DNA from: a phage
Sequence record: PZ564402.1
Strand: one strand, 5' to 3'
DNA: 59,352 nucleotides
Position numbers and translations under genes: made by a program. The notes beneath the pieces were generated by a model. That model worked only from the letters and a program-made list of their open reading frames with translations. It did no database searches and was not told the DNA's origin. Below, piece after piece: positions 43,669 through 50,932 of this stretch; positions within the stretch are counted from its first letter, which is position 1, and every line of letters begins with the position of its first letter.

Positions 43669-43683
43669 GTGAGGAAGCACCCA

Positions 43684-44022
43684 ATGAGCGAAATGGAACG
43701 GGAACGGCCGGGGGATAACTCCGGCGGCATCAAGTTAGACCTGTCTGTCAATCTCCCCACGATTCTGACGATGGCTTCGATGCTGGTGGCGGCGGTACTG
43801 TACGTCAACAACCGCTTCGCCGACCTGTCAAATCAGAACACGCAGACGGACACCCGGCTGACCAACGTCGAGAAACGTCAGGACTCCACTGACGCGGCGT
43901 TCACGGTTCTCCGGGCCGAAACCGTCTCGCAAAACTCCGCCCTTCGTTCAGACCTTCGCGCCGACATGCGCGACCTGAAACAAAGCGTGGATGCCCTATC
44001 TTCCCAAATGATGAGGAAATAA
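43684..44022 (+). CDS. putative holin (single TMD)
   Basis: GAGGAAG RBS; one hydrophobic helix LPTILTMASMLVAAVLYV; immediately upstream of endolysin. Confidence 0.5.
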   Translation: MSEMERERPGDNSGGIKLDLSVNLPTILTMASMLVAAVLYVNNRFADLSNQNTQTDTRLTNVEKRQDSTDAAFTVLRAETVSQNSALRSDLRADMRDLKQSVDALSSQMMRK

Positions 44023-44025
44023 CCG

Positions 44026-44739
44026 ATGGCTAAACAGAAGCCGCGTGGGATTCGCAATAACAACCCCGGCAACATCGAATGGGGGTCGCCGTGGCAAGGG
44101 CTGATCCCGCGTAGCGAGGCGACGGACAGCCGCTTCGCACAGTTCAAAGACCCGGCATCTGGCATCCGCGCCATTGCCGTCACCCTGACCACCTACTACG
44201 ACAAGCGCAAAGCGAACGACGGCAGCAAAATCGACTCGGTGCGCGAAGTGATCGAGCGGTGGGCACCTGCCGTCGAGAACAACGTATCCGCCTACGCTAA
44301 ACAGGTGGCCGCCGTTCTGGCCGTTGACCCGAATAGCGAAACGCTGAACCTCCACGACTACGACACCATGCGCGGTCTGGTGGAAGGCATCATCCGCCAC
44401 GAAAACGGGAACCCGGAAGCGTTCGGCCTGACGCCGTACAGCAACGCGAATACGTGGTACTCGGACGAAGTGATCGAGGAAGGTCTGCGCCGGGCGGGTA
44501 TCGTTAAGGCGGCCAAGCCTGTTAACCGTACCACCGTGGCCGCGACAAGCGTGGCAGGACTCGGCGCGGCGCAACTGGTTGACATGGTACAGCCCGTCAA
44601 GGCTGCGATGGACAGCGCCCACGGCGATATTTCTTCCGGTGATTGGGTACGCATCGCATTCGGCGCGGCCACAATCGCGATTGGCCTGTACATGGGATGG
44701 GTCGCGTACCGGAAGCATCGGGCCGGGGCGGCTGCATGA
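44026..44739 (+). CDS. endolysin with C-terminal transmembrane anchor
   Basis: N-terminal IRNNNPGNIEW motif typical of peptidoglycan hydrolases; C-terminal hydrophobic helix VRIAFGAATIAIGLYMGWVAY; resembles the unusual Chi-like (Enc34-type) endolysin architecture as I recall it. Confidence 0.6.
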   Translation: MAKQKPRGIRNNNPGNIEWGSPWQGLIPRSEATDSRFAQFKDPASGIRAIAVTLTTYYDKRKANDGSKIDSVREVIERWAPAVENNVSAYAKQVAAVLAVDPNSETLNLHDYDTMRGLVEGIIRHENGNPEAFGLTPYSNANTWYSDEVIEEGLRRAGIVKAAKPVNRTTVAATSVAGLGAAQLVDMVQPVKAAMDSAHGDISSGDWVRIAFGAATIAIGLYMGWVAYRKHRAGAAA

Positions 44740-44990
44740 CAGGGCTATTCGCCCGGATCAAGACGGGCGTCCTTGCGGCGCTCGTTTTCGTTGTAGCCCT
44801 CTTCGGCGTCTGGCGGGCAGGACGCGCGAAGGGCAAACAGGATCAGATTAATAACCAGAACTACGACACGTTGCGGGAACAGGCAAACGCGGATAAAAAT
44901 GTGGCCGAGGTGCATAATGAAATCAATAAACTCCCTGCTGGTGGCGCTAACGATCTGCTTCGCCGTAAGTGGATGCGTCGAAAGGATTAA
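44736..44990 (+). CDS. i-spanin (Rz-like), N-terminal TMD
   Basis: ATGA overlap with endolysin stop; TMD GVLAALVFVVALFGVW then charged periplasmic domain. Confidence 0.5.
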   Translation: MTGLFARIKTGVLAALVFVVALFGVWRAGRAKGKQDQINNQNYDTLREQANADKNVAEVHNEINKLPAGGANDLLRRKWMRRKD

Positions 44991-45120
44991 CCCTGCGCCG
45001 TCTTTCTGTTCTGTCGCGCGCGCCATCTACATCGGCGAGGAAGACGTGCTGACAGATGAAACCGCACGGCAGATCGCCACCCACGATGAAATCGGCGAAC
45101 GGCTATGCGGCTGGAAATAG
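44917..45120 (+). CDS. o-spanin (Rz1-like) lipoprotein, overlapping i-spanin in a different frame
   Basis: Lipoprotein signal MKSINSLLVALTICFAVSGC with lipobox-like AVSGC; starts inside the i-spanin gene. Confidence 0.55.
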   Translation: MKSINSLLVALTICFAVSGCVERINPAPSFCSVARAIYIGEEDVLTDETARQIATHDEIGERLCGWK

Positions 45121-48285: not shown

Positions 48286-48521
48286 TCTTCATATTCTCCC
48301 TTCGGTAATTCGTCAGTCACGTCGCGCGCGGCCCATTGCAGGAACGCTTCGCGGGTACAACTTGGATAGTGTCGGCCAAAGCCTACGACCGGGCCGTCGT
48401 ACTGGATGTGCGTGGCCCCGATGTACAGGATGGTGCGGTCGTTCACCAGTCCGTTTCGGTTCTGCGGCCGTTTTCCGCGATACGTGCGGCCCGCTTTCAG
48501 TTCTAATTCGCTATCGGCCAT
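48267..48521 (-). CDS. hypothetical early protein (84 aa)
   Basis: ORF. Confidence 0.4.
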   Translation of the reverse strand: MADSELELKAGRTYRGKRPQNRNGLVNDRTILYIGATHIQYDGPVVGFGRHYPSCTREAFLQWAARDVTDELPKGEYEEWPIKN

Positions 48522-48726
48522 CGCTGTCCACCTCGACTTCGAATGTGCGCGGAACGGTCATGGTCAGCACGTCATTCTCGGTGAACGGTGACAGCGGTTC
48601 GTCGCCCGGCTGGAAGCGCAGCGTGACGCTGCCGACGTTGTGATACGTGATATAGCGAAGGCGGAACTGCTCGCCAAAGATGGTCGCGAGTACGCCCGGC
48701 TTAACGTCTCCTGCGGCAATTTTCAT
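48511..48726 (-). CDS. hypothetical early protein (71 aa)
   Basis: ORF. Confidence 0.4.
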   Translation of the reverse strand: MKIAAGDVKPGVLATIFGEQFRLRYITYHNVGSVTLRFQPGDEPLSPFTENDVLTMTVPRTFEVEVDSDGR

Positions 48727-49016
48727 GGTAAAAGTCCTTCTGGCAAATTATCTATGTGGATAACAGTCGGGGTGTAGCCTTCCTTTATGATGCGACCTAC
48801 CCATTCAAACTCCGGCGTTTTTTGCAGATAAATCACACGCTGTTCGTCGCGCAATGACAGCGGACACGGCCACTCGCCCATGTTCCCCCGTATGATGTTC
48901 GCACCATAATGCTCCGCGATTGCGATCTGCCCCTTCGGCTCAATCTCTGGCGCGCCTTCGCCATAAACGATCACGATGTCATACACGGTCATAGTCTCCA
49001 GTCTAACGGCTCCCAT
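48723..49016 (-). CDS. hypothetical early protein (97 aa)
   Basis: ORF. Confidence 0.4.
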   Translation of the reverse strand: MGAVRLETMTVYDIVIVYGEGAPEIEPKGQIAIAEHYGANIIRGNMGEWPCPLSLRDEQRVIYLQKTPEFEWVGRIIKEGYTPTVIHIDNLPEGLLP

Positions 49017-49183
49017 TGGCCGTCTCGTTTGATGTAGCAGCCGCTTAACGGGCTGTATTTGGTGGGTAGTTCGGTCTGGACGCTGACGTCGTTACACCCG
49101 ATCGCCGCGCCCACACGGCCAATGACAAACAGCACACCGCAGATAATCAATACAAACAGCGTTAGCGCAGCGATCTTCTTCAT
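48989..49183 (-). CDS. small secreted protein / putative lipoprotein (64 aa)
   Basis: AAAGGGG RBS; N-terminal signal-like MKKIAALTLFVLIICGVLFVIG with Cys residues. Confidence 0.45.
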   Translation of the reverse strand: MKKIAALTLFVLIICGVLFVIGRVGAAIGCNDVSVQTELPTKYSPLSGCYIKRDGQWEPLDWRL

Positions 49184-49193
49184 GGTGGCCCCT

Positions 49194-50168
49194 TTATTCC
49201 TTCGGTGGATTTGATTGGTGGCGATTTAGCCAGATGACAATTCCGGCAGTATAATTGATCACGCCGAGCAACTCCCTAACCCTTTGGTCATGTGTTGGCA
49301 GGTTGACACCCTCGACGACCTTTTTGCATACCTGATACACCAAGCCGAGCGGGCTATTGATCAGGTCAGAAATGGCGTTCATCGGCTGCTGGCTGAACGG
49401 CAGGTCATTCGCGTGGCGCTCGCGTCCTTTACCATACGCGGCTTGTGTCAGCGCATCATGTAGCACTTTGACTAATTCGGAATAATCGTTGCTGTCTTTG
49501 ACGTTCCGGAATTCGTACTGCCATGACCTGGCGGCCGACGGTGCAACGGCTTCCGGCGCGACGAGGGCTTCATCAAGCGGCCATCCCTGCGCGAAGGCGA
49601 ACATGATGTAATTCATCGCGTCTATGTACTGATTCTCTTCGAGACAGCGGCGGATGGCGTCGGAACATTGCTTTGGCCAGTCCGGCTGCATCCATCCCAA
49701 TTCCAGTCCCGGGTTTTTGCGCTCGAACTGAATCAGACGATCCAGCATGTATCCGAAGACCTGTTCGCAGATTTCCGCCGTGGGTTGGCTCAACGCTGGC
49801 CGCTCCAGATGGAATACCGTGACAGTCGGGTCTGTCTTGCCTTTCGGCAGTTTCAGGTATTTCTGTTCGGTATCGAGCAGCGACTGAATCAGGCCAAGAA
49901 CGTGCTCCTTCATGATCAATGGCGTGGCGTATCCGGCTTGGTCTAACCCTAACTGCGCCAGCACGGCCTTGCGGAAATCCTCGGCGTCGTACTGATCCTT
50001 GCTTTTCGGCGAGGATTGCAGGTCATTGATAATCTTCACTGCGTGGTCGCGCATATCGCCGTCGTCCTCGTAGTCAAAACTGTCCATGTTCAGCGCGTTG
50101 AGGATGGCTTCTTCAAACTTCTCGCTGCTGGTCTTTCTCAGACCGCGTTCTTTCTTCACGTCTACCAT
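49194..50168 (-). CDS. hypothetical early protein (324 aa)
   Basis: First ORF downstream of promoter 50208-50236. Confidence 0.5.
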   Translation of the reverse strand: MVDVKKERGLRKTSSEKFEEAILNALNMDSFDYEDDGDMRDHAVKIINDLQSSPKSKDQYDAEDFRKAVLAQLGLDQAGYATPLIMKEHVLGLIQSLLDTEQKYLKLPKGKTDPTVTVFHLERPALSQPTAEICEQVFGYMLDRLIQFERKNPGLELGWMQPDWPKQCSDAIRRCLEENQYIDAMNYIMFAFAQGWPLDEALVAPEAVAPSAARSWQYEFRNVKDSNDYSELVKVLHDALTQAAYGKGRERHANDLPFSQQPMNAISDLINSPLGLVYQVCKKVVEGVNLPTHDQRVRELLGVINYTAGIVIWLNRHQSNPPKE

Positions 50169-50207
50169 AATAAAAAACTCCCGTTGGTGGATTAACCTTC
50201 GGGAGTA

Positions 50208-50236
50208 ATATTAATTACACATGTCGCGTATGTCAA
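50208..50236 (-). promoter_or_regulatory. early promoter, conserved family (-35 TTGACA, -10 TAATAT) followed by leader hairpin + U-tract
   Basis: Conserved module; hairpin CTCCCG...CGGGAG then T6 before RBS. Confidence 0.6.
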
Positions 50237-50245
50237 ACGCTTTCT

Positions 50246-50932
50246 TTAAATCTCGTCCCACATCTTGATCCAGCGGTTCCGGATCTTGGCCGATACGTTA
50301 GCCAGTGGTGCGCCGATTTCCAGTAGCGTTTCACGGTCGATATACTCGTTGGGGTGAATGCGGTCAGTCGCCGGGTCGAAGATGTGGATGGCCGCGCCGA
50401 ACCCGGCCGACGTGATTTCGCTGCTGCCTTCCTTCGGCCGGAACCAGACTGGCGGTTCGAACCCGATGCGCCCTTTGATGAAGATGGTGCGCGTGGCGAT
50501 GGTGTCCGGCCACCAGCTTTCCGACGTCGCGGACTTGGTCAGCCAGATGGTGCCTGCGCCTTTGGCCCGCTCCTCGTCGGCCTTGCGCATGATGTGGGTC
50601 ATCCCTGTCAGGTGTTCTTTCCCGGCGCGCTTCTGGCTGTATGGCGGGTTAGCGTAGGCCCAAACGCGGGTGTTCGAGTCGAACCCGTCGCTGGCGTGGA
50701 TCTCGGCCAGACGCTTCGCCCAATCCTGCCGCAGCGCGTTATCTTCGGCCGTAAAGAAACGCTGGCATTTGGCGTTCTGGCCGTCGGTGAACAGGTCAAG
50801 CACGATTGGCCCGTACAGCTTGTTAATCGCTTGGAACAGCCATTCCGGCGTACGCCATTGGTCGCCGATCAACTTCGGTTCGTGCTCGTCCATGCCTTTC
50901 AGCGCGTTCAGCGCATCAACGTACTGGCTCAT
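50246..50932 (-). CDS. dam: DNA N6-adenine methyltransferase (phage Dam type)
   Basis: Catalytic NPPY motif (AYANPPYSQ) and N-terminal WRTPEWLF typical of phage Dam MTases. Confidence 0.7.
   Translation of the reverse strand: MSQYVDALNALKGMDEHEPKLIGDQWRTPEWLFQAINKLYGPIVLDLFTDGQNAKCQRFFTAEDNALRQDWAKRLAEIHASDGFDSNTRVWAYANPPYSQKRAGKEHLTGMTHIMRKADEERAKGAGTIWLTKSATSESWWPDTIATRTIFIKGRIGFEPPVWFRPKEGSSEITSAGFGAAIHIFDPATDRIHPNEYIDRETLLEIGAPLANVSAKIRNRWIKMWDEI

Follow-up and report, generated by a model that had tools for sequence, protein, structure and literature searches.

A conserved early-region gene of Chi-like phages predicted to encode a small inner-membrane protein with a disulfide-braced periplasmic mini-domain

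Small phage membrane proteins form a large and mostly unannotated class, and each of the few characterized cases (Imm, Sp, gp15, RI, Llp, and Cor) has brought to light an envelope mechanism of its own. T5 Llp and phi80 Cor are true outer-membrane lipoproteins, which carry canonical lipoboxes and act on FhuA. Exclusion proteins of the Imm/gp15 kind are, to our knowledge, lineage-restricted. On the host side, the PhoQ inhibitor MgrB adopts an N-in/C-out topology, and its periplasmic cysteines are required for PhoQ inhibition.

Here, we analyze a 64-codon open reading frame (ORF) at 48989..49183 of a phage sequence record (PZ564402.1), the entire 59,352 nucleotides of which are referred to as the window. 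A preliminary description had proposed a lipoprotein-like superinfection-exclusion factor at this position. With moderate confidence, we instead regard the product as a small bitopic inner-membrane protein with a disulfide-braced periplasmic mini-domain, acting as an accessory periplasmic binder. Judged by architecture, HK97 gp15 and E. coli MgrB appear to be its nearest analogues.

The gene and its neighborhood

The window is a Chivirus genome, and its positions 48700-49250 are 100% identical to Salmonella phage vB_Sty_BCPSty_002. Of the 103 phage records that match the surrounding region (48400-50300), 97 do so at 95% identity or more; almost all belong to Chi-like phages (Casjensviridae, Chivirus). 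The ORF is the orthologue of chi_015 (NC_021315), gene 50 (NC_025442), and YSD1_47c, and its product is named “hypothetical protein” in every record except that of phage Siskin, where it is a “putative membrane protein”. Of the 34 genes that lie rightward of the lysis genes in Chi, no more than three have putative functions (Hendrix et al, PMC4342425); the ORF is among those left unassigned.

The boundaries given in the preliminary description match exactly a minus-strand frame of 64 codons plus stop, which starts with ATG and encodes MKKIAALTLFVLIICGVLFVIGRVGAAIGCNDVSVQTELPTKYSPLSGCYIKRDGQWEPLDWRL. Its ATG lies 10 nt past the stop of the upstream gene, and at its other end, its TGA and the start codon of the following gene share nucleotides (ATGA). 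The protein matches phrog_9067 over its full length (E = 3.8e-46), followed by phrog_26710 (8e-07) and phrog_27356 (1e-04), and is at least 99% identical across 92 phage records. Codon comparison yields dN/dS values of 0.21 with BP12C and 0.19 with an orthologue at 63% identity. The Shine-Dalgarno (SD)-like site (Table 1), the tight packing, the phrog_9067 match, the conservation in 92 records, and the dN/dS of about 0.2 thus establish a real, conserved gene rather than a chance ORF. In Salmonella phage 37 (NC_029045, locus L022, 301..495), a one-base deletion directly after the Cys30 codon cuts the orthologue to 45 residues while the DNA downstream of the frameshift is otherwise intact; this would be a natural knockout in a viable phage, or else an error of sequencing. 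Barring the latter, this frameshift suggests that the gene is dispensable.

The ORF sits in a long minus-strand array, which runs from ~57.1 kb down to ~44.7 kb and whose products include an exonuclease, a DNA methylase, a ThyX-annotated protein, and a nucleoside deoxyribosyltransferase. The position of the ORF in Chi-like phages is between the methylase gene and the ThyX-like one, and the order methylase, large hypothetical protein, ORF, ThyX-like gene is also kept in the Casjensviridae phage XAP3. The small protein of this Xanthomonas phage (OQ756160, locus L024, 2926..3123) is identical in amino acid sequence to that of Salmonella phage SAP012 (P0002); such identity is surprising for Xanthomonas citri versus Salmonella, and the recorded host or provenance may deserve a check.

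Several neighbors merit mention in their own right. The 228-residue protein encoded upstream matches the DNA methyltransferase family phrog_111 (E = 1e-69). Many records call it an N-6-adenine methyltransferase; in several RefSeq records it is named phosphoadenosine phosphosulfate reductase, probably a propagated mis-annotation. The 324-residue protein whose gene precedes the ORF has no Pfam or NCBIfam match. Its C-terminal half is conserved (…GKGRERHAND-PF-QPM…), with 35% identity to a 474-residue XAP3 protein, and in Casjensviridae, though not in the other phage families, its gene always stands ahead of that for the small membrane protein. The 89-codon gene whose ATG overlaps the TGA of the ORF is an insertion found in only four phage records, three identical and one at 52% identity (Serratia phage Smarc5). 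It has no match in PHROG, Pfam, or NCBIfam and is absent from Chi and most relatives, where chi_014 directly follows chi_015.

A candidate sigma-70-like promoter is located in the 78-nt gap upstream of the 324-codon gene, one gene before the ORF. Other gaps of the array hold similar consensus matches, and together these sites fit transcription of the array by the host RNA polymerase. The promoter is followed by a hairpin (CTCCCG...CGGGAG) with a T-run just before the ATG of the 324-codon gene; the 3' arm of this hairpin also provides a GGGAG ribosome-binding site, so that the element could regulate translation or be a terminator or attenuator. A literature search on Chi transcription, exclusion, or this gene returned nothing relevant, and no transcript data. 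Judged from context, expression from an early operon is plausible. Of the earlier proposal of an envelope protein in the early operon, a small, probably envelope-targeted protein encoded among early/middle-type genes is supported.

Table 1. Coordinates of the gene, its predicted elements, and neighboring features in the window
Feature	Position	Strand	Basis
CDS, 64 aa + TGA, phrog_9067 member	48989..49183	-	ORF call, profile match, orthologues
Predicted periplasmic mini-domain, codons 30-64: helix end plus strands 41-44, 48-53, and 56-59	48992..49096	-	alignment, AF2
Cys49 codon TGC, invariant, always 19 residues past Cys30	49037..49039	-	alignment
Cys30 codon TGT, invariant in the family; putative disulfide partner of Cys49	49094..49096	-	alignment
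19-residue apolar core of predicted TM anchor, codons 4-22	49118..49174	-	sequence; AF2 helix 2-37
SD-like AAGGGG, 5 nt before the ATG; overlaps TAA of upstream 324-aa gene	49189..49194	-	sequence
Sigma-70-like promoter TTGACA-17-TAATAT, candidate for the ORF's transcription unit	50208..50236	-	consensus match only
Promoter followed by hairpin and T-run	50170..50236	-	
89-aa gene	48723..48992	-	
324-aa gene (phrog_8209)	49194..50168	-	
228-aa DNA methyltransferase	50246..50932	-	phrog_111 match
Lysis cassette	43669..45120	+	
Single-TM 117-aa protein	43669..44022	+	
Endolysin	44026..44739	+	phrog_873
i-spanin	~44736..44990	+	
o-spanin, overlapping the i-spanin gene	44917..45120	+	

Family, fold, and predicted topology

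A HMMER scan of 1.84 billion representative proteins returned 29 matches at E ≤ 1e-3. We set aside three long ones that match in several partial pieces (P0007, P0018, P0026), and the others span 45-84 residues. None of the 22 proteins found by a profile word-search carries a functional name. Relatives occur in three unrelated families of virulent phages, Casjensviridae, Straboviridae, and Autographiviridae, and the hosts of these phages comprise Enterobacterales, Acinetobacter, and Xanthomonas. The homologues are always placed among early/middle replication genes: between regA and gene 43A in the T4-like Acinetobacter phages Acj61 and ZZ1 (two genera), among early genes upstream of the primase/helicase in Pradovirus Titan-X, between helicase and DNA polymerase in Xanthomonas phage DMF5-T1, and next to genes for UvrD-like or DnaB-like helicases and for endonuclease VII in metagenomic phage contigs.

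Bacterial and archaeal genomes were covered by a motif-based scan of one genome for each of 185,579 species, which yielded no genuine copy; the one match is spurious and lies antisense to a tRNA-modification gene. As the full alignment has no stretch conserved enough for locus finding, a trimmed alignment was used for a locus search, which returned Chi-like viral contigs only, besides this spurious bacterial match. As far as the motif pattern reaches, the gene belongs to virulent phages and is no prophage moron.

We aligned 27 members, the most distant of which have 27% identity; C30, C49, and W57 are present in all of them, and conservation is at least 90% at G48 and P59. The consensus reads C-x-DV-x-x-QT-x-x-PTKYS-x-x-SGCYV-x-x-x-G-x-W-x-P-x-x-x-WR, and the mini-domain of the ORF protein shares its conserved residues K42, Y43, S44, S47, G48, Y50, W57, and P59. 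The spacing of the two cysteines is 19 in all 31 sequences compared. The ORF protein fits the family pattern throughout, with a hydrophobic anchor, a cysteine pair 19 apart (C-x18-C), G-C-[YWFLM], and W-x-P. We infer from the invariance of the cysteines that Cys30 and Cys49 form a disulfide bond.

AlphaFold2 run on the family alignment predicts a helix from residue 2 to 37 followed by the three strands given in Table 1 (mean pLDDT 93.3, pTM 0.66). Independently predicted BFVD models of the ZZ1, Titan-X, and Acj9 proteins superpose with TM scores of 0.64-0.76, and a 52%-identical entry superposes at 0.89. Foldseek against BFVD retrieves only uncharacterized phage proteins of like architecture (including those of the Acinetobacter phages ZZ1 and Acj9, of Titan-X, and of the phages Cronobacter JC01, Salmonella 9NA, and Proteus Saba). 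In the PDB, Foldseek finds no match with E below 2.8, and a sequence profile search has no meaningful match; the best results of these PDB searches are a designed repeat protein and fragments at E > 2.

Profile libraries place the protein among families lacking a functional annotation. No Pfam or NCBIfam model and no relevant PADLOC model matches the ORF protein or any of the 27 aligned members. All 27 match phrog_9067, 26 match phrog_26710, and 19 match phrog_27356; these and the other PHROGs matched by several members (18961, 8041, 37489, 29445) are all annotated as “unknown function”. By profile matching, the ORF protein belongs only to its own uncharacterized PHROG cluster. A likeness of the segment C-x-DV-x-x-QTG-x-PTKYS to excisionase/MerR-type helix-turn-helix (HTH) proteins was considered and dropped, as no member has an HTH Pfam match and the AlphaFold2 model places strands where the recognition helix would be.

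The N-terminus consists of MKK, with the basic residues K2 and K3, and an uninterrupted apolar run of 19 residues from I4 to G22. The hydrophobic N-terminus with cysteines of the preliminary description is accurate; the cysteines are located at positions 15, 30, and 49. Apart from R23, the hydrophobic stretch continues to residue 28. The summed dG of the apolar run on the Hessa scale is -4.1 kcal/mol, and the median apolar run ahead of the cysteine pair is likewise 19 residues among 31 family members. Hydrophobic regions of cleaved signal peptides are typically 7-15 residues long, and the length of the run points to a transmembrane (TM) segment rather than a cleaved signal. The protein is most likely an N-in/C-out signal-anchor protein, because it combines a basic N-terminus, an apolar stretch of TM length, a polar/charged linker, and invariant cysteines that need an oxidizing compartment. 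The K/R counts flanking the anchor are balanced family-wide (42 versus 41), so that support for an N-in orientation comes chiefly from the Chi-like subgroup and the cysteine pair.

The same N-terminus might instead be a signal peptide. Two AXA-like sites at residues 24-27 (VGA|A and GAA|I) offer small residues at -3 and -1 behind the basic N-terminus, and cleavage by signal peptidase I at these sites is possible. A cut after Ala26 or Ala27 would release a soluble, disulfide-bonded periplasmic peptide of ~37 residues, which by analogy to T4 Spackle could act, e.g., against a muralytic or other periplasmic target. Both the cleavage and such a Spackle-like role appear rather improbable, as the apolar stretch of 19-25 residues exceeds typical cleaved h-regions, the AXA-like motif is unconserved in the family, AlphaFold2 predicts a single continuous helix through the putative site, and neither sequence nor fold matches any PDB chain.

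Lipidation and candidate roles

The preliminary description called the protein lipoprotein-like. An early lipoprotein acylated at Cys15 or Cys30 could block a receptor or entry channel (the flagellum or AcrABZ-TolC), as T5 Llp and phi80 Cor block FhuA. A basic N-terminus with a hydrophobic stretch behind it and an early-type array with a sigma-70-like promoter would suit such a protein, and residues 27-30 (A-I-G-C) fit a relaxed lipobox. We applied a lipoprotein rule requiring Lys/Arg within the first seven residues and Cys at position 15-35, combined with the lipobox patterns [LVI][ASTVI][GAS]C or the PS51257 core {DERK}(6)-[LIVMFWSTAG](2)-[LIVMFYSTAGCQ]-[AGS]-C; the G+LPP pattern was also run. 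K2 and K3 provide the charged n-region of PS51257, but the ORF protein matches neither the PS51257 core nor the G+LPP pattern nor the DOLOP lipobox. As a positive control, a PS51257-type scan of 2,208 start sites (at least 40 codons) in the window recovers the o-spanin (MKSINSLLVALTICFAVSGC, with its lipobox AVSGC) and not the ORF.

Neither cysteine has the conservation of an acylation site. Cys15 stands in the context L-I-I-C with Ile at -1, and is itself replaced by Leu in BP12C and by Phe in P0003, P0006, and P0008. Ahead of Cys30, R23 falls within the six positions that PS51257 wants uncharged. Further, four Chi-like orthologues (P0003, P0006, P0008, and P0011; AIRC, VIRC) have Arg at -1 of Cys30, and distant members have T, E, D, K, Q, or M there, mostly preceded by a charged linker; in most of the family, a charged or polar residue occupies this position. 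At the conserved cysteine, a DOLOP lipobox occurs in only one of 30 sequences. Because Cys30 is invariant together with Cys49 at the fixed spacing of 19, it follows the pattern of a structural disulfide rather than of an acylation site. A PS51257-type lipobox is found at an extra upstream cysteine in four of 31 members (P0013, P0019, P0030, and Titan-X), among which the Titan-X relative has a canonical LAGC and the BFVD label “Lipoprotein”. Some relatives might accordingly be lipid-anchored, which would be neither a family trait nor applicable to the Chi protein.

The distribution of the family bears on the blocking function as well. No superinfection-exclusion PHROG or PADLOC model matches, and members are carried by Salmonella, Acinetobacter, and Xanthomonas phages that use different receptors. 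That three unrelated phage families, which differ in their entry routes, carry such proteins speaks against a block of one particular receptor or channel but leaves room for exclusion at the inner membrane. On the pattern tests with their in-genome o-spanin control and on family conservation, we reject the lipoprotein identity and consider a lipoprotein blocker very unlikely indeed; the label “lipoprotein” should not be propagated for this ORF.

In the bitopic binder that we favor, the MKK N-terminus would stay cytoplasmic and residues ~4-28 would form an uncleaved signal-anchor across the inner membrane. The final ~35 residues would lie on the periplasmic face, where the helix would extend to residue 37 and lead into a three-stranded β-sheet pinned to it by the Cys30-Cys49 disulfide. 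The predicted ectodomain is tiny, membrane-proximal, and rich in aromatic residues (Y43, Y50, W57, and W62), which is why we propose that it binds an inner-membrane component: contact with the periplasmic face of such a component of host or phage would alter envelope behavior in the infected cell. For a domain so small and so near the membrane, only periplasmic loops or domains of inner-membrane proteins would be reachable.

What this binding might serve can be stated with less confidence. As the family is common to phages with unrelated entry machineries and hosts, a conserved host target, or a generic action on the membrane, is the simplest assumption. By analogy to MgrB or SPO1 gp56, the protein may, tentatively, modulate a conserved host inner-membrane protein during host takeover. 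The broader idea, that a family of disulfide-stapled single-pass mini-proteins binds one conserved inner-membrane or periplasmic host component before late gene expression in virulent phages as unlike as Chi-like siphoviruses, T4-like Acinetobacter myoviruses, and T7-like podoviruses, is speculative and somewhat doubtful; the component would be, e.g., a sensor kinase, a part of the divisome/elongasome, or a transport complex. Of the remaining weight, exclusion would take more than lysis timing, with the rest left to other roles.

Superinfection exclusion at the inner membrane would not need lipidation: by analogy to T4 Imm and HK97 gp15, the anchored ectodomain could keep incoming phage DNA or the tape-measure channel from passing the cytoplasmic membrane. 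The size and single-pass architecture resemble gp15 (62 residues), the early/middle location in virulent phages recalls T4 imm adjoining gene 43, and the gene looks accessory or dispensable. On the other hand, hhalign shows no relationship with Imm or gp15 (probability < 1%), and the breadth of the family across Casjensviridae, Straboviridae, and Autographiviridae is unlike the known lineage-restricted exclusion proteins. We consider this role unlikely, though less so than those that require cleavage or lipidation.

The lysis cassette on the other strand looks complete (single-TM protein, endolysin, i-spanin, and o-spanin), and a holin function of the ORF itself was rejected on these grounds. 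The 117-residue single-TM protein is called “Rz-like spanin” in PHROG/RefSeq and may be the holin; no gene is annotated as such, and the o-spanin has a canonical lipobox. At the end of the transglycosylase-like endolysin, basic residues come after a hydrophobic segment (WVRIAFGAATIAIGLYMGWVAYRKHR), suggesting a C-terminal membrane anchor, which is unusual compared to N-terminal SAR endolysins.

A lysis-timing factor is a separate matter, as its periplasmic domain could bind that of a single-TM holin-like protein in the manner in which the T4 antiholin RI binds the holin T. The predicted topology, an N-terminal anchor with a small periplasmic domain, is like that of RI; T4 rI is located away from the lysis genes, as is the ORF; and the candidate holin of Chi has one TM helix and a C-terminal tail of ~70 residues. 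Against this, the ORF lies ~4.3 kb from a lysis cassette already complete in appearance, on the opposite strand and among replication genes, the family occurs in phages with other holin types, and the ORF protein has no PDB match. Lysis timing is thus improbable as one of the roles open to a periplasmic binder, and slightly more so when set up as an explanation of its own.

If the protein binds a conserved envelope component, it would represent a new, broadly used mechanism of host-envelope takeover or exclusion without a characterized homologue. The family offers a compact, confidently modeled fold with three invariant residues, and the small size of the protein would make it easy to express, to mutagenize, and to screen for partners. 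Its carriers include ~100 Chi-like Salmonella phages that are therapeutic candidates, besides unrelated virulent phages. Should the protein exclude phages or rewire the host envelope, it would be relevant to the design of phage cocktails; if not, it is an ordinary hypothetical membrane protein.

Comparison with described membrane proteins

By profile, the actual family of the ORF protein is that of PHROGs 9067, 26710, and 27356, for which neither function nor structure has been described; no PHROG with an annotated function, exclusion and lipoprotein families included, is matched by the ORF protein or the 27 aligned members. T4 Imm, HK97 gp15, and E. coli MgrB were taken from public records and compared by direct profile comparison (hhalign), according to which none of the three is related to the ORF protein. 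The likenesses are those of size, architecture, and gene context.

T5 Llp and phi80 Cor share with the ORF protein that they are small phage envelope proteins made before lysis, but the ORF protein fails the lipobox rules. T4 Imm (83 residues) is closer in context, as a small membrane protein encoded by a virulent phage among early replication genes, next to gene 43. In contrast to the ORF protein, it has two hydrophobic segments and no cysteine pair, and the hhalign probability is 0.2%. HK97 gp15 corresponds in length (62 residues) and, as far as the predicted architecture of the ORF protein goes, in its single N-terminal TM helix and ~35-residue tail and as an accessory inner-membrane protein. 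However, its tail lacks cysteines and looks helical, the hhalign probability is 0.7%, and gp15 is a prophage-expressed moron between tail genes, whereas the ORF is an early-region gene of virulent phages.

The host protein MgrB (47 residues), an inhibitor of the kinase PhoQ, differs from the ORF protein in the spacing of its cysteines (11 versus 19) and in being no phage gene. In hhalign, it aligns with the family over the first six columns only (probability 16%), and Pfam MgrB (PF13998) matches none of the 27 members. Yet, in line with what is predicted for the ORF protein, it begins with M/V-K-K, has a single TM helix, and carries two cysteines and a C-terminal Trp in a short periplasmic tail, which in MgrB measures ~20 residues. 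Thus, as far as an analogy of architecture can indicate, MgrB is the best available model for a small disulfide-bearing bitopic regulator of an inner-membrane protein.
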